From a virus (taxonomy: Duplodnaviria > Heunggongvirae > Uroviricota > Caudoviricetes), in IMG/VR virus record IMGVR_UViG_2698536559_000013: 10,585 nucleotides of DNA; one strand, 5' to 3'. The notes under the pieces are model-generated. The model ran no database searches. It saw only the letters and a program-made list of their open reading frames with translations, and was not told where the DNA came from. The translations under genes were made by a program, and so were the position numbers. Shown one piece after another: positions 1-10,585 of this stretch; the stretch's first letter is position 1; each line of letters begins with the position of its first letter.

Positions 1-21
1 AATACGGTGCTCCGTTGACGC

Positions 22-3000
22 TTACGTTTTATCAACCACCAACGCACCATATTTAGACGGCCCAGATGTCTTAACATTCAATGCTCGACCACTTAATGCT
101 TCGCCTGACTTACTTTTCAACAGTAACGTAAATACCAGATTGTTGGTATCGCTCACTACAGCCGAAGATGCAGATGATGTGATCTCCAACACAGCCCCCT
201 TCACATCCGTTACGGCATCAATATTCTGGCTTGCGGTTATGCGTTTCCCATCCAGAACATACTCGGCCTGAATTGTGTACTGGCCTGATTTCGTTGCAGT
301 GAACTGCGTTGTTGCCTGTCCATGAGCATCCAGTTGCAGATTACTACTGGTCAATGATGCTCCCGTCGATGGTGTAATCGTTAAATCCACCTCGCCTGTA
401 AACGCATTGTTATTCGCATCAACCAACTGAATGTTTACTGTTGCGTTTTCACTGCCATCGGCCACAATCTCCTGTTTTGATACACTCATAGTAAGTTCTG
501 CAGAAGCAACATCGGGCACAAAAGTTAACTTAACGCTGCCAGATTCCACGCTATGGGAACCGTCAGTCACCCGTGCAGTCACCGTGTACTCACCAGCTTT
601 CACCGTTGTAAGCGGAACAGAAACATGCCCTGTTGAATCAGTCACGATATTTGTTGGTACAGATAATCCTTCAGATGAGGTGATGAGCTGAATCTTTTGC
701 CCATTGACCGACGCATTCGTATTTGTCAGCTGCACATCTAATACCGCTGCATCCTTACCATTAGCAGGAATATTGGAAATTAAACTACTGCTTTCAGGCG
801 TCAGTGACAGTGAAGCTCCGGTCATATTTGATGCAAAGGTCACTGTTAACTCAGTAGACATCTGAGAACCAGCATGAGCTGTAATCACGTAAGACCCCGG
901 AGTGGAGCTTATTAACGCAAAAATAGCATTACCATTTTCGTCAGTTGAAACAGCATGTTCACCACCAACTTGAGTTATCCCTGCTGGTAAAGACAATGTG
1001 ACAGCATAACCAGGAACAACATTGCCGAAACGGTCCGCAAGGCTTACAGTTACCATATTTCTCTGTTTTCCATCAGCCAATGCATTATTTTGGCTGGCTT
1101 CAAACTGAGAGAATGTAACCTGCTGCCGGTCCTCAATAAAGGTGATTTCTTTCTTAACACCTGAGAAATCATGACTATCAGATTTAACACCGATAGTAAT
1201 CTTACCAGCTCGTTTTGAAGTTACTGTCGCGCTATAGACACCGTCTTTTTCCGTTACAGTCCCAAACTCGACTCCTTCTGCCTGGTTAAGAGCATAAAAG
1301 CTCAGAGTGTTATCACCAGTGATTGCATTTCCTTGTGAATCCTTCACTGCCAGTTGTAGATTGATATTGTAACCAACTACCTGTTCTGCTGGTGCAGCGG
1401 TTAAAACAGCACTGACCTCAGAATCAGGTTCTGTTGCTGCTGTTTGCTTAATACTGAGAGTAAATGTTTTTCCCTGAACTTTTGCAGTTACACGTACCGT
1501 ACCAGCCTGCGAACCAGCAGTCAGAACAGAGTGATATACCCCAGCAGAGATTTCCTCTACCGCGCCTAATGACGGAGCAGTTACCGTTTCACGCTGTCGA
1601 GCACTATTGCTATCTGCTGTAAATTCCACTGACATTTCAATGTCATCAGCCAGTCCGGTTAATGCCTTACCGTTACTATCTTTCAGGCTTAATACTATCG
1701 GATAAGTGGATTGGCTATCAGCAGAGATCGTCGGCGACGAATCTCCATCCAGTGTAAAAGATGAATCCGCTGTCGAGACACCACTATTATTAACGCTGAT
1801 ATTCATAACGGCATAGTTGGAAACATTGCCTCTGTTATCCTGGACTGTGGCTCCAACATTCCACGAATTTACATCTCCGCTTTTATAAGCCGGTAAAGTG
1901 ATCTGCCATGATGTGCCATTTCCACTGATCTTACCGCCAGCCGCAGTGAATGCACTATCATTCCACTGTACAGACTTGATACCACCACTAGCATTGTTGA
2001 TTGTCAGTGTTACAGGGATGATTGATTCCCCCTCCCCCTGAACAGACTCTGGTAAGCTGATTTTCAGTGCATGCTTCTTCTTGTACTCCAGAACAATGTT
2101 GTTATTTCGTTCAACAAAATCATAACGCCGGTTCTGGACTTCTCGCATAACAGCAACATTGTCACTGCTAAGCTGTTCAGCAAGGGAAACGCCCGGGCGA
2201 TAATTAAACTCAACACCAAAGGTTGTATCGTGAACGTTGCTCTGTCCTTGCTTATGCTGTGCAGAAAACTTAATCAGAGGAACTGGTGTATAAGAAATTC
2301 CCCCAGTAACTGCGTAAGGGTTTTCCTGAAGATTATCGCTTCCAAATAACCCGACATTTTTACCATAATATTTTTCAAACTGAATGGATGCCCCTAATTG
2401 CGGATAAGCAGGTAGCCATCCTTCAGCAGAAAAATCCCAGCCATTTGCGGGTCTTTCCAGATAATCATCAATATCCCGACTGTTCTTCCAGTCAGACAAA
2501 CCAAAATAGGTATTTACACCAAGCCTGAAATAATCTCTCCAGTACTCAACCCCAAAACCTGCACGAGAGTGACTGCGACTTAAATCGTAATCATAGAAAA
2601 CATTCGCACCCAACATTGCGTTATCAGGAGTGAAATGACGAATCCCCAAACCAATATTGGTCTGATTTCGGTCATCAGTACGATGTAGTGATGTCTGACT
2701 GAATAGCACATAATCCTGAGTATCCAGCCATGGATATAAAAAGTCGAATGATGAATCCTTCAAGGAAAAAGAATCATCGACATTAAGCTTGATGCGCGCA
2801 TTGCCATATTGTTGCAACCAGTCGACGACCTCTTTTGTCGCCTGAGTTGATAAAGTATTTACAGCAAAACTACTTGCATTATTATTTGCTAGGCTCTGAC
2901 CTGCACTTGCTGCAAATGAGGCCACTTTATTTGCATGCTCATCGCTGGCATAAGTTTGCGTAACATCTTTATTACCAGATGATGCAAAACTGTTTGCTGG

Positions 3001-3102
3001 GATCAAAGAAAGAGAAACTGGAGATAATATCTGGGTAACAATTACCGACCATGTAATCGCGCCAGATGCAGTTTTTTTTAACTTTTTATTCACAGTGGTC
3101 AT
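22..3102 (-). CDS. Inverse autotransporter adhesin (intimin/invasin family), 1026 aa, apparently full length
   Basis: Long uninterrupted minus-strand ORF (stop TAA at 22-24, ATG at 3100-3102). N-terminus is hydrophobic and signal-peptide-like, followed by a sequence typical of the inverse-autotransporter beta-barrel domain (e.g. YDYDLSRSHSRAGFGVEYWRDYFRLGVNTYF, FGVEFNYRPGV). The rest is Ser/Thr/Val/Gly-rich, consistent with bacterial Ig-like (Big) repeat passenger domains. Family call is from recalled sequence features; domain boundaries were not computed. Confidence 0.85.
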   Translation of the reverse strand: MTTVNKKLKKTASGAITWSVIVTQILSPVSLSLIPANSFASSGNKDVTQTYASDEHANKVASFAASAGQSLANNNASSFAVNTLSTQATKEVVDWLQQYGNARIKLNVDDSFSLKDSSFDFLYPWLDTQDYVLFSQTSLHRTDDRNQTNIGLGIRHFTPDNAMLGANVFYDYDLSRSHSRAGFGVEYWRDYFRLGVNTYFGLSDWKNSRDIDDYLERPANGWDFSAEGWLPAYPQLGASIQFEKYYGKNVGLFGSDNLQENPYAVTGGISYTPVPLIKFSAQHKQGQSNVHDTTFGVEFNYRPGVSLAEQLSSDNVAVMREVQNRRYDFVERNNNIVLEYKKKHALKISLPESVQGEGESIIPVTLTINNASGGIKSVQWNDSAFTAAGGKISGNGTSWQITLPAYKSGDVNSWNVGATVQDNRGNVSNYAVMNISVNNSGVSTADSSFTLDGDSSPTISADSQSTYPIVLSLKDSNGKALTGLADDIEMSVEFTADSNSARQRETVTAPSLGAVEEISAGVYHSVLTAGSQAGTVRVTAKVQGKTFTLSIKQTAATEPDSEVSAVLTAAPAEQVVGYNINLQLAVKDSQGNAITGDNTLSFYALNQAEGVEFGTVTEKDGVYSATVTSKRAGKITIGVKSDSHDFSGVKKEITFIEDRQQVTFSQFEASQNNALADGKQRNMVTVSLADRFGNVVPGYAVTLSLPAGITQVGGEHAVSTDENGNAIFALISSTPGSYVITAHAGSQMSTELTVTFASNMTGASLSLTPESSSLISNIPANGKDAAVLDVQLTNTNASVNGQKIQLITSSEGLSVPTNIVTDSTGHVSVPLTTVKAGEYTVTARVTDGSHSVESGSVKLTFVPDVASAELTMSVSKQEIVADGSENATVNIQLVDANNNAFTGEVDLTITPSTGASLTSSNLQLDAHGQATTQFTATKSGQYTIQAEYVLDGKRITASQNIDAVTDVKGAVLEITSSASSAVVSDTNNLVFTLLLKSKSGEALSGRALNVKTSGPSKYGALVVDKT

Positions 3103-3351
3103 AGTTCAATCAACGTTATGAATATAATGAAAAAAATAACTGGTATGACAAGAGGCGCGAAATATACAGCTCGTTACAAAAAAATCAACTCAAAAATAAA
3201 ATAAAATCTCTGCATAAACTTTATGGCTAAATGATTTCACAACAATGGAAGAAAAATTTTGTTGCTCACGCAATCAATCATTTCGGGCGTTACAACTAGT
3301 CCTAGATTATATTCGCTAGGTATACTTTATTTTTAAGCTAATACTTTAGCT
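3103..3351 (-). promoter_or_regulatory. AT-rich upstream region of the adhesin gene; putative promoter/regulatory region
   Basis: About 250 bp of strongly AT-rich non-coding sequence between the stop of the P fragment and the adhesin start codon. No specific -35/-10 elements were confidently identified. Confidence 0.3.
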
Positions 3352-3912
3352 CTATTTCATCGCTCCTTTCAGCCCGAACTTAGCTTTGATTTCTGCGATC
3401 TTCGCCAGAGCCTGTGCACGATTTAGAGGTCTACCGCCCATGACAGGAAGTTGTTTTACTGGTTCAGGTATAGCCTCACCACGGTTAATTCGTGCGGTCA
3501 TACAGGACAGTTCATCGGCAGCCTTGCGCCGTAATTCCGCGTCAGTCAACGCATTGGCCCGCATGTTCTGATACAGGTTGGTAACCAGCCAGTAGTGCGC
3601 GTTTGATTTCCACGGATAAGACTCTGCATCCAGATACAGCCCGCGCTTCCGGCAATACTCGTAAACCATATCAACCAGCTCGCTGGCGTTTGGCAGTCCG
3701 GCGGTAACGGATGCTTCTTCCCGGCACCAGGCAACAAACTGCCCGGGTGATGGCAGGAATGGTCGATTCTGCCGACGGGCGACACGCACTCCGGCGCTCA
3801 CCTGTTCCATTGTGGTGATCCCGTTTTCCCGGAAAGCCAGAACCCACTGGCGGCGGATTTCGTTCAGTTCGTTCTGGTCCCGGTTAGCCAGGCTCGCCGG
3901 GAAAGTTGCCAG
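3352..3912 (-). pseudogene. P: C-terminal fragment of lambda replication protein P (about residues 48-233); first in-frame Met is at 3810, giving a 152-aa ORF
   Basis: Minus-strand translation reads LATFPASLANRDQNELNEIRRQWVLAFRENGITTMEQVSAGVRVARRQNRPFLPSPGQFVAWCREEASVTAGLP...RAQALAKIAEIKAKFGLKGAMK, which I recognise as near-identical to the C-terminal part of lambda P. In-frame sequence above about 3913 (RANHGYKCVRCRDADI) no longer matches P. The extreme C-terminus (GAMK) and downstream sequence also differ from lambda, where ren would follow. Confidence 0.85.
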
Positions 3913-3997
3913 TATATCTGCATCGCGGCATCGAACGCACTTATACCCGTGATTTGCTCGTGGAAGTTTTTCTCGACGGACGCGGTAACGGCCTGAA
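3913..3997. other. Junction segment of unknown origin between the P fragment and the gam-proximal lambda-like sequence
   Basis: P homology ends near 3913, and sequence I recognise as the region just upstream of lambda gam (tcactaa...cctgttttcctaatcagcccggcatttcgcgggcgatattttcacagc) begins near 3998. The roughly 85 bp between matches neither as far as I can recall. Confidence 0.4.
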
Positions 3998-4079
3998 TCA
4001 CTAATCTCCTTTCCTGTTTTCCTAATCAGCCCGGCATTTCGCGGGCGATATTTTCACAGCCATTTTCAGGAGTTCAGCC

Positions 4080-4376
4080 ATGAACGCTTATTACATTCAG
4101 GATCGTCTTGAGGCTCAGAGCTGGGCGCGTCACTACCAGCAGATCGCCCGTGAAGAGAAAGAGGCAGAACTGGCAGACGACATGGAAAAAGGCCTGCCCC
4201 AGCACCTGTTTGAATCGCTATGCATCGATCATTTGCAACGTCACGGGGCCAGCAAAAAAGCCATTACCCGTGCGTTTGATGACGATGTTGAGTTTCAGGA
4301 GCGCATGGCAGAACACATCCGGTACATGGTTGAAACCATTGCTCACCACCAGGTTGATATTGATTCAGAGGTATAA
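4080..4376 (+). CDS. gam: Gam (short GamS form, 98 aa), RecBCD inhibitor
   Basis: ORF translation [98 protein letters not shown] matches lambda Gam from its internal Met onward, with two substitutions relative to my recollection. Strong SD caggag sits 7 nt upstream of the ATG. Confidence 0.9.
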
Positions 4377-4381
4377 AACGA

Positions 4382-4911
4382 ATGAGTACTGCACTCGCAA
4401 CGCTGGCAGGGAAGCTGGCTGAACGTGTCGGCATGGATTCTGTCGACCCACAGGAACTGATCACCACTCTTCGCCAGACGGCATTTAAAGGTGATGCCAG
4501 CGATGCGCAGTTCATCGAAAAACCCGCGAAGGCAGAGAAATCACCGGACCGTGGCAGTCGCATCCCAAACGAATGTTGCGGCATAAAGCCATGATTCAGT
4601 GTGCCCGTCTGGCCTTCGGATTTGCTGGTATCTATGACAAGGATGAAGCCGAGCGCATTGTCGAAAATACTGCATACACTGCGGAACGTCAGCCGGAACG
4701 CGACATCACTCCGGTTAACGATGAAACCATGCAGGAGATTAACACTCTGCTGATCGCCCTGGATAAAACATGGGATGACGACTTATTGCCGCTCTGTTCC
4801 CAGATATTTCGCCGCGACATTCGCGCATCGTCAGAACTGACACAGGCCGAAGCAGTGAAAGCTCTTGGATTCCTGAAACAGAAAGCCACTGAGCAGAAGG
4901 TGGCAGCATGA
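4382..4911 (+). pseudogene. bet: bet (Red-beta single-strand annealing protein) disrupted by an internal out-of-frame deletion
   Basis: N-terminal 45 residues (MSTALATLAGKLAERVGMDSVDPQELITTLRQTAFKGDASDAQFI) match lambda Bet, then the frame reads non-Bet sequence to a stop at 4592-4594. The Bet C-terminal part (PKRMLRHKAMIQCARLAFGFAGIYDKDEAERIVENTAYTAERQPERD...[11 protein letters not shown]) continues in the +1 frame to 4911. The breakpoint lies near 4515-4520 (ttcatcg/aaaaacccgcgaagg). Confidence 0.85.
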
Positions 4912-5588
4912 CACCGGACATTATCCTGCAGCGTACCGGGATCGACGTGAGAGCTGTCGAACAGGGGGATGATGCATGGCACAAATTACGGCTCGGCGTC
5001 ATCACCGCTTCAGAAGTTCATAACGTGATAGCAAAGCCCCGATCAGGAAAGAAGTGGCCTGACATGAAAATGTCCTACTTCCACACCCTGCTGGCTGAGG
5101 TTTGCACCGGTGTGGCTCCGGAAGTTAATGCTAAGGCGCTGGCCTGGGGAAAACAGTACGAGAACGACGCCAGAACTCTGTTTGAATTCACTTCCGGCGT
5201 GAATGTTACTGAATCCCCGATCATCTATCGCGACGAAAGTATGCGCACCGCCTGCTCTCCCGATGGTTTATGCAGTGACGGCAATGGCCTTGAGCTGAAA
5301 TGCCCGTTTACCTCCCGGGATTTCATGAAGTTCCGGCTCGGTGGTTTCGAGGCCATAAAGTCGGCTTACATGGCCCAGGTGCAGTACAGCATGTGGGTGA
5401 CGCGAAAAGATGCCTGGTACTTTGCCAACTATGACCCGCGTATGAAGCGTGAAGGACTGCATTATGTCGTGGTTGAGCGGGATGAAAAGTACATGGCGAG
5501 TTTTGACGAGATGGTGCCGGAGTTCATCGAAAAAATGGACGAGGCACTGGCTGAAATTGGTTTTGTATTTGGGGAGCAATGGCGATGA
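4908..5588 (+). CDS. exo: Lambda-type exonuclease (Red-alpha, Exo), 226 aa
   Basis: Full-length ORF whose translation ([65 protein letters not shown]...[15 protein letters not shown]) matches lambda Exo with a few substitutions. ATGA start/stop overlap with bet, as in lambda. Confidence 0.95.
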
Positions 5589-5767
5589 AGCATCCTCACG
5601 ATAATATCCGGGTAGGCGCGATCACTTTCGTCTACTCCGTTACAAAGCGAGGCTGGGTATTTCCCGGCCTTTCTGTTATCCGAAATCCCCTGAAAGCACA
5701 GCGGCTGGCTGAGGAGATAAATAATAAACGGGGAGCTGTATGCACAAAGCATCTCCCGTTGAGTTAA
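5585..5767 (+). CDS. orf60a: Lambda orf60a-like small protein (60 aa from the ATG overlapping the exo stop; an upstream ATG at 5579 would give 62 aa)
   Basis: Translation [57 protein letters not shown]... matches my recollection of lambda orf60a. ATGA overlap with the exo stop. Confidence 0.7.
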
Positions 5768-5931
5768 GAACGAGTATCGAGATGGCACATAGCCTCGCTC
5801 AAATTGGAGTCAGGTTTGTGCCAATACCAGTAGAAACAGACGAAGAATTTCATACGTTAGCCGCATCCCTTTCACAAAAGCTGGAAATGATGGTGGCGAA
5901 AGCAGAAGCAGATGAGAGAGACCAGGTATGA
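5740..5931 (+). CDS. orf63: Lambda orf63-like small protein (63 aa)
   Basis: ORF of exactly 63 codons ([63 protein letters not shown]) in the position of orf63 of the lambda early-left operon. Overlaps the 3' end of orf60a in another frame. Confidence 0.7.
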   Translation: MHKASPVELRTSIEMAHSLAQIGVRFVPIPVETDEEFHTLAASLSQKLEMMVAKAEADERDQV

Positions 5932-6011
5932 CAACCACTGAATGCATTTTTCTGGCAGCGGTCTTCATATTCTGTGTGCTTATGCTTGCCGACATGGGAC
6001 TTGTTCAATGA
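5928..6011 (+). CDS. Candidate 27-aa hydrophobic small protein (MTTTECIFLAAVFIFCVLMLADMGLVQ)
   Basis: Below the ORF-track size cutoff. Its ATG overlaps the orf63 stop as ATGA (5928-5931) and its stop overlaps the orf61 start as ATGA (6008-6011). The core is strongly hydrophobic, consistent with a single transmembrane helix. Confidence 0.4.
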   Translation: MTTTECIFLAAVFIFCVLMLADMGLVQ

Positions 6012-6223
6012 CACCTCAGCAAGAAAACGCCCTTCGCAGCATTGCCCATCTGGCTAATTATGAAATCAAAAAAGCCAGACAGCAGTTTCCGGATAAAAAC
6101 GTCGATGACATTTGCCGTAGCGTACTGAAGAAGCACCGCGAAACGGTAACGCTGATGGGATTCACACCGACTCATTTAAGCCTGGCGATCGGCATGTTAA
6201 ACGGCGTCTTTAAGGAACGGTGA
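6008..6223 (+). CDS. orf61: Lambda orf61-like small protein (71 aa from this ATG)
   Basis: Translation MTPQQENALRSIAHLANYEIKKARQQFPDKNVDDICRSVLKKHRETVTLMGFTPTHLSLAIGMLNGVFKER; position and sequence are consistent with lambda orf61. The track ORF starts at an upstream ATG (5942), but the ATGA-coupled start at 6008 is more plausible. Confidence 0.65.
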   Translation: MTPQQENALRSIAHLANYEIKKARQQFPDKNVDDICRSVLKKHRETVTLMGFTPTHLSLAIGMLNGVFKER

Positions 6224-6225
6224 GC

Positions 6226-6315
6226 ATGAAAAACAAAATCATCATGGAGCTACAGGCTCCTTTTTTATTATTCGCATTCACCCTCAAGCGTATTAACCAA
6301 CAATTCAGGGATTAA
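6226..6315 (+). CDS. Candidate 29-aa small ORF (MKNKIIMELQAPFLLFAFTLKRINQQFRD)
   Basis: Short ORF filling the gap between orf61 and orf73, with aagga about 9 nt upstream of the ATG. No homology recognised; could be non-coding spacer. Confidence 0.2.
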   Translation: MKNKIIMELQAPFLLFAFTLKRINQQFRD

Positions 6316-6321
6316 TGAAAG

Positions 6322-6543
6322 ATGGCAGACATCATTGATTCAGCATCAGAAATTGAAGAATTACAGCGCAACACAGCAATAAAAATGCGCCGCCTGAACC
6401 ACCAGGCTATATCTGCCACTCATTGTTGTGAGTGTGGCGATCCGATAGATGAACGAAGACGTCTGGCCGTTCAGGGTTGTCGGACTTGTGCAAGTTGCCA
6501 GGAAGATCTGGAGCTTATCAGTAAACAGAGAGGTTCGAAGTGA
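6322..6543 (+). CDS. orf73: TraR/DksA-family C4 zinc-finger protein (lambda orf73-like), 73 aa
   Basis: 73-aa ORF with two Cys pairs (CCECGDP...CRTCASC) typical of the TraR/DksA zinc finger. Position matches lambda orf73. Confidence 0.8.
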   Translation: MADIIDSASEIEELQRNTAIKMRRLNHQAISATHCCECGDPIDERRRLAVQGCRTCASCQEDLELISKQRGSK

Positions 6544-7088
6544 GCGAAATTAACTCTCAGGCACTGCGTGAAGCGGCAGAGCAGGCAATGCATGACGACT
6601 GGGGATTTGATGCGGACCTTTTCCATGAGCTGGTAACACCATCGATTGTGCTGGCGCTGCTGGATGAACGGGAATCCCAAAACAAGCGTATTGCAGAACT
6701 GGAGAAAAGCGAAGAGCAACTCATTAACGAGCGTGACCATGCTGAGTCTGCTTTAGATGATATGTACTTTGCAGCAACCGGTAACAGGCCGGAGTGGAGC
6801 AACTGGTTCGGCTTTTCAGATGCTGTCGATGCCGTGGTTGACAGAATTGCTGATTTAGAAGCTAAACAATGCATTGAAGAGATGAGTAAACAAAGTTGCG
6901 AAGCTCGGGAGCGTGATTTGTTTGAATCATGGGTAATGCATTCAATTTGTATTTCCAAATCGACGCTTGAAGGATTGCGCACCGAAACTGGATACCGTAA
7001 CGCGACCTTATCAGGAACAGACTTCAACCGCATGTGGGAACAATGGAAATCTATCCGCGCTGCTGGTATTCGCATCAAAGGAGACTGA
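6540..7088 (+). CDS. ea22: Ea22-like protein, 182 aa (GTG start)
   Basis: 182-codon ORF whose N-terminus MSEINSQALREAAEQAMHDDWGFDADLFHELVTPSIVL matches my recollection of lambda Ea22. GTG start overlaps the orf73 stop (GTGA). Central region is coiled-coil-like and charged. Confidence 0.8.
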   Translation: MSEINSQALREAAEQAMHDDWGFDADLFHELVTPSIVLALLDERESQNKRIAELEKSEEQLINERDHAESALDDMYFAATGNRPEWSNWFGFSDAVDAVVDRIADLEAKQCIEEMSKQSCEARERDLFESWVMHSICISKSTLEGLRTETGYRNATLSGTDFNRMWEQWKSIRAAGIRIKGD

Positions 7089-7089
7089 T

Positions 7090-7299
7090 ATGGCTATTGC
7101 CGCAAGTTATACCATGCATCTCTATTGTGATTGTCGCCAGTGTACGGAAGGTGTATATCCAGTGCCAGACTTCGGTGAGTATATCGGTACGTCATGGTCT
7201 GGTTGTGCAAAAGAGGCCCGTAAAGATGGGTGGCGAATAAGCAAAGACAAAACACGTACTTTTGCGCCCGGGCATAAAGTTTTGAGGATTAACACATGA
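7090..7299 (+). CDS. ea8.5: Ea8.5-like Cys-rich small protein (69 aa from the ATG at 7090)
   Basis: ORF with the Cys motif HLYCDCRQCTEG...SGCAKEARKDGW in the position of lambda ea8.5. SD aaggag immediately upstream of the 7090 ATG. The track's longer version (from 6967) overlaps ea22 out of frame and is less likely. Confidence 0.7.
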   Translation: MAIAASYTMHLYCDCRQCTEGVYPVPDFGEYIGTSWSGCAKEARKDGWRISKDKTRTFAPGHKVLRINT

Positions 7300-8078
7300 C
7301 CACTATTACCAAAGAACGTATTGAATTGTTCATTAAAAATCCGCTTGAAAACGGGCTTACTCGTGGCGAACAAATGGAACTGGCACGAATTGCACTGGCA
7401 TCACTGGAACGCGAACAGATTCGCCACGAGCATGCCAAATGGTCTGACTCCACATTTGGCTGCGTTGGCCCCATTGGTCCACTGAAACACCTCTCAAAAG
7501 AGGCACTGGAAGCCGCAGCCGAACCAGACGATCTTAGCGAGTGGGCTGATATGCAGTTTCTGTTGTGGGATGCACAACGCCGTGCTGGCATCAGCGATGC
7601 TGAAATTAACGTTGCTATGGAAGATAAATTGAAGATCAACATGGAGCGCCAGTGGCCTGAGCCAAAAGATGGTGAGCCTCGCTTGCACATTAAAGAACCC
7701 GGCAACTCTCCGGTAATTCCGGATGGTTTATCCACGGTATGCGCTGAGGCTTATCAGGTTGTAGGAGTTATGGCAGATGCGCTTGGTGTATTCGGTGATG
7801 CAGCAGTACAGAAAGTTCTGGATAACCTGTCACAGCAAAAACTTGTTCACAGAGATGTGCTGCCGTTCTCGCTTCCGGTAACTCCGGATAGTTGGATAAG
7901 CTGTAGTGAGCGAATGCCGAACGACGCGCAGTGGTGCGTAGTGAACACAGAATACGGGTATTACGCGCAATGCTGGTCTGAAGGTCAAGGGTGGCTTGGT
8001 GATGATATCAGCATCCCTGAATGCGATGTAATCAATTGGATGCCACTACCAGAACCGCCGCAGGAGGTGAATCAATGA
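7296..8078 (+). CDS. Phage accessory protein with an N-terminal MazG-like (DUF550, dATP/dGTP pyrophosphohydrolase-type) domain and a C-terminal DUF551-like Cys/Trp-rich domain, 260 aa
   Basis: ATGA overlap with the ea8.5 stop; SD gagga 7 nt upstream. The N-terminal half carries acidic helix motifs (KEALEAAAEPDDLSEWADMQFLLWDAQRRAG) resembling all-alpha NTP pyrophosphohydrolases. The C-terminal half (WISCSERMPNDAQWCVVNTEYGYYAQCWSEGQGWLGDDISIPECDVINWMPLPEPP) resembles DUF551. Domain calls are from memory of motifs, not a profile search. Confidence 0.75.
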   Translation: MTTITKERIELFIKNPLENGLTRGEQMELARIALASLEREQIRHEHAKWSDSTFGCVGPIGPLKHLSKEALEAAAEPDDLSEWADMQFLLWDAQRRAGISDAEINVAMEDKLKINMERQWPEPKDGEPRLHIKEPGNSPVIPDGLSTVCAEAYQVVGVMADALGVFGDAAVQKVLDNLSQQKLVHRDVLPFSLPVTPDSWISCSERMPNDAQWCVVNTEYGYYAQCWSEGQGWLGDDISIPECDVINWMPLPEPPQEVNQ

Positions 8079-8158
8079 GCTGGCCTGAAGCATTCGCAAC
8101 GGTAGGAATTGCAATGGCGGTAGCACTGGTTTTGTATTCAATTTGTCGCTGGGGATAA
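8075..8158 (+). CDS. Candidate 27-aa membrane peptide (MSWPEAFATVGIAMAVALVLYSICRWG)
   Basis: ATGA overlap with the stop of the 260-aa gene; SD-like caggaggtga 5-14 nt upstream. Hydrophobic core consistent with one transmembrane helix. Below the ORF-track cutoff. Confidence 0.4.
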   Translation: MSWPEAFATVGIAMAVALVLYSICRWG

Positions 8159-8279
8159 CGATGATGCTCATGCGGAAATCATCAAAAAAATGGAACTGCT
8201 AACATGATTTAGGTGGGAGCCTGGAAGATGGCTCCACATATCAACATAGATTATTTCAGGATTCCATATTTTAACTAAT

Positions 8280-9164
8280 CTAAGTTCGACTATTTGGGGC
8301 ATTGATATGCTGTAAATGATGCTTAAGCCAATTTCCAGCCGCGCCTGGTGGCGATTTTTTATTCCAAAGCAGATCGATAGAAATTGCCTTTGGCCAGCCA
8401 GGTACGTCGAGCTGAACCAGCGGTTTTTCTGTTGCAAACTCCTCAACCAGAGCACAGGGCAGAGAGCACCAGCCAAATCCCTGTACGGCCATACTGAGTA
8501 ACAACAAATAGTTAGGTGCAGACCAAACCGGTCCACGGGCAATCATCTCCCGGTTATCGATATAAGTATTAAGACGAAGTTCTCGCCATGAATGAAGTTG
8601 TTCCCGCTGGATTGTTTTTTCTGCAGACAGTGGATGTGACGCCGAAACATAAATGCCCATCCACGCTTGCATCGGTAAACGGGTTGAGCCAATATCGGTG
8701 GGGTAGTGTTCCCGAGACTCAATTAAGCCGATCTGCGCTCGTTCTTTTTGCAAAAGATCGATGACATCGACATCCTCACCAATTAAAACCTCTAACTCAG
8801 TATGTGGAAACTGACTATCAAACTGCACCATGATGTCTTCTAATAAGTCAGGGTGTAGGGTATCGGAAAGCACAAACGTCAGACGAGCTTCAGTCTCTCC
8901 GGCAAGCGAAACCGCCACCTCCTCAAGACGTTCACTGGCTGACAAAATCGCATGAACGTAACTCAATACTTTCTTTCCTTCCTCTGTCAGCACAGGTTCT
9001 CGCGAAGAGCGATCGAATAATGATATACCAAGATCGACCTCAAGATTGGCAATTGACGTACTGACTGCGGACTGACTTTTGCGTAATCTTCGTGCCGCAG
9101 CAGAAAAGGAGCCACAGGAAACCGCTTCAACAAATGTACTTAACGCTTCAAGTGAGTAACGCAT
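8280..9164 (-). CDS. LysR-family transcriptional regulator, 294 aa
   Basis: N-terminal HTH typical of LysR-type regulators (LEALSTFVEAVSCGSFSAAARRLRKSQSAVSTSIANLEVDLGISLFDRSSREPVLTEEG) followed by a co-inducer-binding-type domain. Transcribed divergently from the adjacent transporter gene. Confidence 0.9.
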   Translation of the reverse strand: MRYSLEALSTFVEAVSCGSFSAAARRLRKSQSAVSTSIANLEVDLGISLFDRSSREPVLTEEGKKVLSYVHAILSASERLEEVAVSLAGETEARLTFVLSDTLHPDLLEDIMVQFDSQFPHTELEVLIGEDVDVIDLLQKERAQIGLIESREHYPTDIGSTRLPMQAWMGIYVSASHPLSAEKTIQREQLHSWRELRLNTYIDNREMIARGPVWSAPNYLLLLSMAVQGFGWCSLPCALVEEFATEKPLVQLDVPGWPKAISIDLLWNKKSPPGAAGNWLKHHLQHINAPNSRT

Positions 9165-9267
9165 AATCTATCAATTTTTTCGATGGTATCTATCTTTTAT
9201 ATATCACATAAATCGATAAAAATCTCACAACTCCATAACGCGGTCGAAACTGTAAGAAAGGTAAGTT
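9165..9267. promoter_or_regulatory. Divergent intergenic control region between the LysR gene and the PACE transporter gene
   Basis: 103-bp AT-rich spacer between divergent start codons. Contains an imperfect inverted repeat, tttttcgat (9176-9184) and atcgataaaaa (9213-9223), as might serve a LysR-type operator. No promoter elements were verified. Confidence 0.4.
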
Positions 9268-9726
9268 ATGCAACATAATGCGATTCAACGCAGATCGTTA
9301 CTTGAGCGTATTTTTCACGCTATTTGCTTTGAAGGAATTGCCACTGCGATTCTGGCCCCCACCACAGCATGGTTAATGCAGCGAACTATACTCGAAATGG
9401 GCGGGATGACTATCTTGTTGGCTTCAACTGCAATGATCTGGAATATCATCTATAACATGCTATTTGATCGCTACTGGCCTGCTCATCAGGTAAAACGAAC
9501 TGCAAAAGTTCGTGCATTCCATGCTTTGGGCTTTGAAAGTGGATTTATCGCGATCGGCGTCATTATGGTGTCCTGGATTCTGAGCGTCAGTCTGTTACAG
9601 GCTTTTACACTAGAGATAGGATTCTTCCTTTTCTTTCTACCATATACCATGTTCTACAATTGGGCCTATGACAGCTTACGTTTACGTGTTGTGAAACAGC
9701 ATCAACAACGTATGCTTGCCAGATAA
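9268..9726 (+). CDS. PACE-family (AceI-like) small efflux transporter, 152 aa
   Basis: Two tandem repeats each beginning with the R-x-x-h-A-x-x-F-E motif (ERIFHAICFEG and VRAFHALGFESG), plus WNxxYNxxFD-like motifs (MIWNIIYNMLFD, MFYNWAYD) and four predicted hydrophobic helices. Divergent LysR partner, as in aceR-aceI. Confidence 0.8.
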   Translation: MQHNAIQRRSLLERIFHAICFEGIATAILAPTTAWLMQRTILEMGGMTILLASTAMIWNIIYNMLFDRYWPAHQVKRTAKVRAFHALGFESGFIAIGVIMVSWILSVSLLQAFTLEIGFFLFFLPYTMFYNWAYDSLRLRVVKQHQQRMLAR

Positions 9727-9800
9727 TGTTTTCCCAGGGGAGTAATGAAAATCGCGCAATAATTTTCGATATCCATACTGTACCCCCACCGACTTAACAT

Positions 9801-9827
9801 CCCCGCCCTCGCGGGGATTTCTTTTAT
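9801..9827 (+). terminator. Rho-independent terminator downstream of the PACE gene
   Basis: GC-rich hairpin ccccgc-cctc-gcgggg (9801-9816) followed by a T-rich tract atttcttttat. Confidence 0.6.
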
Positions 9828-9830
9828 CTG

Positions 9831-9857
9831 AACTCGCTACGGCGAGTTTTGTTTTAT
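9831..9857 (+). terminator. Second tandem hairpin plus T-tract; possible back-up terminator
   Basis: aactcgc-tacg-gcgagtt stem-loop (9831-9848) followed by ttgttttat. Confidence 0.4.
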
Positions 9858-9868
9858 GGGGATGATAA

Positions 9869-10036
9869 ATGCACTTCCGAGTCACAGGAGAATGGAATGG
9901 AGAGCCATTCAACAGGGTTATCGAAACAGAGAACATCAACGACTGCTATGACCACTGGATAATATGGGCGCAGATAGCACATGCAGACATAACCAATATT
10001 CGAATTGAAGAACTGAAAGAACACCAAGCCGCCTGA
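9869..10036 (+). CDS. Candidate 55-aa protein of unknown function (MHFRVTGEWNGEPFNRVIETENINDCYDHWIIWAQIAHADITNIRIEELKEHQAA)
   Basis: Below the track cutoff. SD gggga 6 nt upstream of the ATG; in-frame stop immediately upstream; followed directly by a terminator hairpin. No family recognised. Confidence 0.45.
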   Translation: MHFRVTGEWNGEPFNRVIETENINDCYDHWIIWAQIAHADITNIRIEELKEHQAA

Positions 10037-10049
10037 TGGCGGTTTTTTT
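10028..10049 (+). terminator. Rho-independent terminator/attenuator overlapping the stop of the 55-aa ORF
   Basis: gccgcc-tgat-ggcgg hairpin followed by ttttttt (10043-10049). Confidence 0.55.
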
Positions 10050-10063
10050 ATTGGAGACAAGAA

Positions 10064-10408
10064 ATGTCAGATTTGGCTATGAAGGTTTTGAAATGGCAAT
10101 CGACTGGCGATGTTGGCATCAGTAGCGCAACTCTTGCCTCAATCGCATGTGGACTGAAAAAGAATATCTATGGTCATAGCTTCGGTGCTCCACATGACGC
10201 AGCCGATTTCAGACGATGCGTTGCACTTGTTGAGCAGATTCCAGAAATCAGAGATTCATTCGACAAGGTTGCAAAGCGCGTTCCGGCATTCAAAGGCATC
10301 CTCAACGAATGGGATTCCCTCGTTGCTCTGTTGAAGTCAGAAATGAAGATACACGGAAACAAAGCACCAGAGACTTACAGAAGAATCAGCGAGCTACGCA
10401 AGGACTAA
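10064..10408 (+). CDS. Hypothetical protein, 114 aa, unknown function
   Basis: ORF with SD ggaga 6 nt upstream of the ATG. Soluble-looking, mixed-charge protein (MSDLAMKVLKWQSTGDVGISSATLASIACGLKKNIYGHSFGAPHDAADFRRCVALVEQIPEIRDSFDKVAKRV...). No family recognised. Confidence 0.6.
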   Translation: MSDLAMKVLKWQSTGDVGISSATLASIACGLKKNIYGHSFGAPHDAADFRRCVALVEQIPEIRDSFDKVAKRVPAFKGILNEWDSLVALLKSEMKIHGNKAPETYRRISELRKD

Positions 10409-10585
10409 CCATGAAATAACACCGCCTCACACTCGATGAGGCCTGTTCATTGCTCAATGATATCCAGACCTACCGCAATAATACCAACTCAATAAATGGA
10501 GATTCCAGGTGGAAGAAGAAATCTTCACTCGTGAAGAGGCAGCATCGTATCTGAAGGTAGTGTAGTGGTCAACAAAAACTGGCCA

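Follow-up and report, generated by a model that had tools for sequence, protein, structure and literature searches.

The closest described counterpart of the locus studied here is the Red operon of phage lambda (NC_001416, nt 31348-33232), in which gam, bet and exo stand in this order and the stop codon of bet overlaps the start codon of exo. The cryptic lambdoid prophages of E. coli K-12 (DLP12, Rac and Qin) have lost lytic and immunity functions through deletions and insertion sequences (IS), while scattered intact genes and cargo have been kept. Defective prophages of this kind are recombination partners for incoming phages (PMC3945230). In the Bet protein (Red-beta), residues 1-177 form the DNA-binding and oligomerisation domain (PMC6393309, PMC9512822), and Exo and SSB are bound by a three-helix bundle made up of residues 183-261 (PMC6393309). 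F66 is near-universally conserved, and F66 and W143 are conserved residues of the DNA pocket, W143 being among the two most conserved (PMC9512822).

The window, that is, the whole stretch of 10,585 nt analysed here, carries an operon with the gene order and the bet/exo overlap of lambda, and the region upstream of gam is also kept (98.3% over 403 nt). It differs from lambda in lacking Bet codons 46-131, pL, N/nutL and everything between kil and P; moreover, lambda is a phage, whereas the window operon sits in a non-inducible relic. Compared with the K-12 cryptic prophages, the relic lies at the thrW/proA site, has a different cargo (an inverse autotransporter, an alpha/beta hydrolase, a LysR regulator and a PACE transporter) and carries lambda-type Red genes, whereas Rac carries RecET. 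Its nearest relatives are relics that share the window architecture and the relic-forming junction and that all encode a 261-aa Bet, namely E. coli 377323_2f, Z1323PEC0014, 2015C-4136CT1 and Z1323HEC0355 (100% identity), the SC455-type isolates (LR7781xx; 98.9%), L016 and L019; the 257-nt loss described below occurs in the window alone, and the left end of the window differs as well. The features to which the text refers are as follows.

22-3102, minus strand: inverse-autotransporter (IAT; intimin/invasin-like) gene, prophage cargo downstream of P, with Pfam domains IAT_beta, Big_1 and Invasin_D3
3352-3914, minus strand: C-terminal fragment of the lambda replication protein P gene (pseudogene), annotated in identical relics as 'replication protein P, missing N-terminus'
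3915-4004, plus strand: 3' remnant of a kilR-like gene; window 3915-4400 corresponds to 5087-5572 of the full-length prophage L008
4029-4046, plus strand: putative terminator-like GC hairpin with a T-rich tail, from a consensus scan only
4080-4376, plus strand: gam, 98 aa, an intact ORF of the GamS form that agrees with lambda Gam residues 41-138 at 96 of 98 positions
4382-4594, plus strand: 5' remnant of bet, 70 aa, with codons 1-45 native, followed by 25 out-of-frame codons (EKPAKAEKSPDRGSRIPNECCGIKP) and a TAA stop
4517-4519, plus strand: deletion junction, with bet nt 136 at 4517 and bet nt 394 at 4519 on either side of an A (4518) that is either non-templated or a substitution
4573-4911, plus strand: 3' remnant of bet, a 112-aa ORF in the native frame corresponding to Bet residues 150-261, its TGA overlapping the exo ATG
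4908-5588, plus strand: exo, intact, 226 aa, 223/226 identical to full-length lambda Exo

The lesion in bet

The lesion was read by direct comparison with the intact relic copies of bet in E. coli 2015C-4136CT1 (L001) and 377323_2f (L014; NZ_CP039404.1), and chance is of no concern in a direct comparison with a reference. In L014 the intact gene occupies 8357-9142. Window positions 4382-4517 were 100% identical to bet nt 1-136, and positions 4519-4911 were 100% identical to bet nt 394-786. The 257 nt between them (bet nt 137-393, CATTGTTG...GAACCATTC) were replaced by a single A at window position 4518, giving the junction ...TTCATCGAAAAACCCGCG... in the window. The net loss was 256 bp, with codons 46-131 (86 codons) missing and the frame shifted, and the native frame restarts at K132, out of register with the start codon. 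The first-pass annotation had proposed an internal out-of-frame deletion of about 256 bp or 86 codons around position 4516, which agrees with the exact event of 257 nt lost and one A gained at 4518. When phages and 5,426 complete E. coli genomes were searched with megablast, the query always aligned in two pieces, with 256 extra bases between them.

The endpoints of the deletion in bet are TCATCG/CATTG and CCATTC/AAAACC. Comparison of the endpoints with the intact copy revealed no microhomology, so that the flanking microhomology for which an alignment to bet had been proposed was absent, and no direct or inverted repeat spans the endpoints in intact bet. As neither microhomology nor a spanning repeat is present, the lesion amounts to an illegitimate deletion in which one base fills the join; the loss of 256 bp together with a C-to-A change describes it equally well.

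Two other origins of the difference were considered. Slipped misalignment between direct repeats was rejected, since the endpoints have neither microhomology nor secondary structure. The reverse event, in which the 257-nt segment would be a mobile insertion in the intact copies, was rejected as well, since lambda bet has the segment, which encodes essential residues of the N-terminal domain.

The two remnants of bet (4382-4594 and 4573-4911) lie in different frames, and comparison with lambda upheld the earlier reading that a 45-residue N-terminus and a C-terminal part are both present out of register: residues 1-45 of the 70-aa ORF were identical to lambda Bet 1-45 (45/45), and the 112-aa ORF matched lambda Bet 150-261 at 111 of 112 positions. 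Descent from bet is evident from the remnants being 100% identical to the bet of 377323_2f, from their position between gam and exo and from the stop codon overlapping the exo start. The Bet of an intact relative scored 115.6 bits with the Pfam RecT model over residues 24-183. By comparison, the 70-aa product had no Pfam match, and the 112-aa ORF matched only the tail of the RecT model, at 16.5 bits and thus below the cut-off of 24, indicating that the contiguous, above-threshold N-terminal domain of the Red-beta/RecT family (PF03837) is present in neither remnant. F66 lies inside the deleted segment, and the W143 codon lies 3' of the junction, out of frame with the start codon and upstream of the restart at M150, so that no polypeptide of the window combines the two residues. 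The open frame 4573-4911 comprises the end of the N-terminal domain, the linker and the whole C-terminal domain for Exo and SSB binding (residues 183-261; domain limits from PMC6393309). By its sequence, this stretch is a bet pseudogene and not a functional member of the Red-beta/RecT family.

Because only 45 native residues are left and most of the DNA-binding and oligomerisation domain is gone, it can safely be predicted that the truncated Bet product would be unable to anneal DNA. The loss of single-strand annealing predicted from the first reading is thus in keeping with the domain comparison, most of residues 1-177, including F66, being deleted.

The prophage relic and the expression context of gam and exo

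Many genomes, including ST131 and L008, carry full-length prophages with the same IAT-P arrangement, in which the order is IAT, P, O, ydaT/ydaS-like genes, repressor, kilR, gam, bet, exo and so on to xis and int. Against this arrangement, the window has a relic-forming junction at 3914/3915: window 3100-3914 corresponds to L008 775-1589, and window 3915 onward corresponds to L008 5087 onward. The relic-forming deletion is therefore 3.5 kb (L008 1589/5087) and removed the N-terminus of P, O, the ydaT/ydaS-like genes, the repressor/immunity region and most of kilR (KilR is called at L008 4886-5176). Since everything between kilR and the middle of P was deleted, pL and N are gone too.

In E. coli 377323_2f, the identical locus contains proA, tRNA-Thr, an integrase, IS3, two small ORFs, the PACE transporter, the LysR regulator, a dATP/dGTP pyrophosphohydrolase, Ea22-like, TraR/DksA, DUF1382 and DUF1317 genes, exo, bet, gam, the P fragment, the inverse autotransporter, an alpha/beta hydrolase, ybcN-ninE-ybcO and IS3. 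The relic is thus integrated at the thrW/proA site, with IS3 elements on both flanks. No repressor, O or late genes were found among the window ORFs or in the 377323_2f locus. The tRNA integration site, the missing immunity, replication and morphogenesis modules, the IS elements and the pseudogenes together characterise a defective (cryptic) prophage relic.

Several further observations concern the cargo and the ends of the window. LysR, the PACE/BTP transporter and two small ORFs (window 8280-10408) are prophage cargo and form a PACE-family efflux module. The exact LysR protein occurred in 1,945 index blocks, mostly adjoining sucrose (csc) genes, and at most of the places shown for the LysR-PACE blocks the phage genes were cut down to a 92-95 aa stub of the pyrophosphohydrolase. 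The LysR-PACE cargo outlives the phage, and the deletion in bet fits into this decay gradient. The pyrophosphohydrolase ORF of the window (7296-8078, plus strand) encodes 260 aa from the first ATG, with dATP-dGTP_PPHyd and DUF551 domains; for the identical sequence, RefSeq gives a 227-aa product and a small upstream pseudogene fragment.

The IAT gene of the window encodes 1026 aa, compared with 1183 aa for the allele in relatives, because window positions 1-25 diverge. Near its 5' end, an 8-T tract (window 3072-3079; A8 on the coding strand, minus-strand codons KKLKK) was observed. In E. coli 2015C-4136CT1 the tract has only 6 nt and the gene carries a frameshift annotation; the tract may act as a slipped-strand on/off switch. 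Positions 1-25 differ from every complete E. coli genome, and the left-end junction also occurred in 3.1-3.5 kb Logan contigs of SRR36257219 and SRR9969839, which end short of bet. The foreign 25-30 nt at this end contain a 7-nt inverted repeat (GCGTCAA...TTGACGC) and match inside the IAT genes of other strains, 200-450 nt away, as well as many other places. At the right end, positions 10569-10585 run 17 nt into the IS3-family element of the 377323_2f locus. With repeats at both ends, the window probably represents one complete short-read contig.

Both neighbours of bet are intact, as had been proposed. Gam (PF06064, host-nuclease/RecBCD inhibitor) scored 216.8 bits over residues 1-98 of 98, and Exo (YqaJ, PF09588) scored 105.4 bits over 2-149 of 150, indicating full-length domains above threshold in uninterrupted ORFs. 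Furthermore, exo has its own Shine-Dalgarno-like motif, AAGGTGG, 6 nt upstream of its ATG. The pL transcription and N antitermination of a functional lambda Red operon are both missing from the window. No sigma-70-like site was detected on the plus strand between window position 3202 and the gam ATG (4080), and the total number of hits did not exceed the shuffled expectation, although in a consensus scan a missing match does not prove silence, and read-through or weak promoters are possible. The loss of pL and N, together with the missing sigma-70-like site upstream of gam, makes expression of gam and exo in the relic doubtful, as far as can be judged from sequence.

The putative hairpin at 4029-4046 lies 34 nt upstream of the gam start and is kept from lambda (about nt 33145-33162), probably near the lambda tL2 terminator cluster. 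If it acts as a terminator, it would further limit read-through into gam where N antitermination is missing.

Age and origin of the deletion

Apart from the lesion in bet, window 26-10585 showed 0 differences from E. coli 377323_2f over 10,559 aligned bases (100.000%), and three further complete genomes were approximately 100% identical to the window relic. A 261-aa bet was present in 7/7 complete E. coli genomes with the relic architecture and also in L016 and L019. The comparison with other isolates carrying the relic, proposed in the first-pass annotation, therefore divided: the relic is shared, and the deletion is not, bet being intact in all nine other carriers examined. A junction 100-mer had no single-piece match in the 5,426 complete E. 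coli genomes, and a junction 36-mer was found neither in the GTDB species genomes nor in the JGI metagenomes. Likewise, the exact 70-aa product was absent from the gene-position index and from a collection of 15 billion proteins. The deletion allele thus appears to be lineage-private, in the sense that it occurs in no other searchable genome, and very young.

We consider it highly probable that the allele represents a recent, lineage-private, neutral illegitimate deletion in an already crippled, probably silent lambdoid relic. The earlier 3.5-kb deletion would first have crippled the prophage at thrW/proA, with loss of the immunity and replication genes, pL and N. Later, 257 nt would have been lost from bet, with one A left at the join, turning the gene into a pseudogene. 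The absence of microhomology would fit end-joining or replication-associated illegitimate recombination as the mechanism. Judged from its context, the event would be one neutral step in the progressive erosion of the prophage, and not a selected state with Gam and Exo only. In this sequence of events, the 10.5-kb locus has acquired no further mutation after the deletion, which is why gam and exo are still intact.

A different account would be that the junction arose as an artefact during sequencing or assembly, or belongs to a minority variant of the culture, and that the chromosome has an intact bet. The allele is unique among everything searchable, its locus is otherwise identical to genomes with intact bet, and the 70-aa product is on record nowhere, including the SRA runs that share the left-end junction. 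In addition, the window ends at repeats (IS3 on the right and repeated sequence on the left), suggesting a short-read contig, and the closest relative has two places that match the gam-bet-exo query, so that multi-copy confusion is conceivable. However, no repeat is shared across the junction, at which one additional, non-templated base is present. From the way assemblers work, collapse of a de Bruijn graph would need a repeat of at least k and could not invent junction k-mers, and the contig passes through the junction cleanly with perfect flanks. We therefore regard an artefact as unlikely.

Broken bet in other prophages and the question of selection

The state in which Exo and Gam are encoded beside a broken bet had been described as unusual in the first-pass annotation, and this view did not hold, since independent lesions have produced the same state again and again in other prophages. 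The exact 112-aa C-terminal ORF was called as a separate gene in 80 contigs (146 index blocks). Broken bet beside intact gam and exo was found in other E. coli and Shigella lambdoid prophages, which have kept the gam and exo ORFs and the 112-aa C-terminal ORF as the window has, and which differ from it in their lesions, at least seven of them independent.

Stop at W143 (TAG): L006, L009
Stop at W143 (TGA): L007, L008 (bet of L008 at 5554-6339)
Stop at S145 (TAG): L003
-1 frameshift at about codon 142, with almost the same out-of-frame tail: P0020, Shigella flexneri 1a
Insertion of an IS3-family element after nt 453: L002
Deletion reaching from the gam 3' end into bet: L005
Rearrangement at nt 448: L004

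Full-length bet greatly outnumbered the broken forms, each of the top two alleles occurring on at least 1,000 contigs, so that broken bet is a recurrent minority state. Many of the broken-bet loci sit in otherwise complete prophages, in which the repressor, O/P and integrase are present. The nonsense and frameshift lesions fall just upstream of M150. The lesions were found with a bet fragment starting at M150 as the query, with no matching test for lesions in gam or exo, and their clustering near codons 140-150 is largely a search effect, because the query ORF starts at M150.

Constraint was assessed between two lineages of the relic. The SC455-type relic (L026) has the identical relic-forming junction, and the relic therefore arose once. 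Between 377323_2f (L014 8357-10774) and the SC455 type (L026 7357-9774), Bet, DUF1317 and TraR had a pS of 0.11-0.12, compared with at most 0.01 in the flanking IAT, LysR and PACE genes, indicating a synonymous divergence in the bet..TraR stretch 10-25-fold above that of the flanks. In bet, 21/23 changes were synonymous, and pN/pS for gam, bet and exo together was approximately 0.11. The elevated synonymous divergence indicates that the bet..TraR patches were probably imported by recombination with other lambdoid phages; recombination of lambda with defective prophages has been documented experimentally (PMC3945230). The reading of the pN/pS of 0.11 as constraint within the relic was rejected, since with imported alleles the low value reflects constraint that acted in functional phages and not in the relic.

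These comparisons bear on the suggestion that the loss of bet was adaptive, with Bet removed to abolish Red recombination and Gam and Exo kept for the benefit of the host, through RecBCD modulation or defence of DNA ends. In its favour, gam and exo are uninterrupted and closely resemble their lambda counterparts, exo has a Shine-Dalgarno-like motif of its own, independent lesions of bet beside intact gam and exo recur, and pN/pS is low. However, the low pN/pS comes with imported phage alleles, and the recurring lesions were found by a bet-fragment query that had no gam or exo counterpart, by which no bet-specific excess is shown. Since the locus has no other divergence, the intact gam and exo carry no information on selection. 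Moreover, no promoter was detected, pL and N are deleted, the terminator-like hairpin lies just upstream of gam, and bet is retained in the other relic carriers examined. Selection against Red, or for a function of Gam and Exo, as had been put forward in the first-pass annotation, is thus very unlikely to explain an allele with zero other divergence, no detected promoter and nine other carriers with bet, and neutral deletion in a probably silent relic is the better description of this locus.

Termination-reinitiation is a translation mechanism for a stop and a start that are closely placed. Re-initiation at ATG 4573 would accordingly be conceivable here, though it is unsupported, and a 112-aa fragment made in this way and modulating Exo or SSB is very improbable: the ORF is in the native frame, its ATG precedes the stop of the frameshifted ORF (4592-4594) by 20 nt in fitting geometry, the C-terminal domain (183-261) alone binds Exo (PMC6393309), and several other natural lesions leave the same ORF, but no Shine-Dalgarno motif occurs in the 15 nt before ATG 4573, the operon has no detected promoter and has lost pL and N, and since this very ORF served as the query, its survival in other alleles reflects ascertainment. 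The window deletion, both W143 stops, the S145 stop, the frameshift and the IS insertion all spare the 150-261 ORF and exo, a recurrence owed largely to the choice of query. It is similarly hard to credit, from ORF geometry only, that E. coli prophages would recurrently turn Bet into a free Exo/SSB-binding C-terminal fragment by re-initiation; if true, annealing would be switched off while a module of Gam, Exo and the C-terminal domain was kept for the benefit of the host.

The locus is a caution against taking an intact neighbouring ORF for evidence of selection where divergence is zero. Beyond the single allele, the wider questions are whether bet is lost preferentially over gam and exo, and whether the Red genes of relics serve as a recombination reservoir. 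The deletion itself would add a further step to the gradual decay of a cryptic lambdoid prophage, and it could mark the lineage of the strain.
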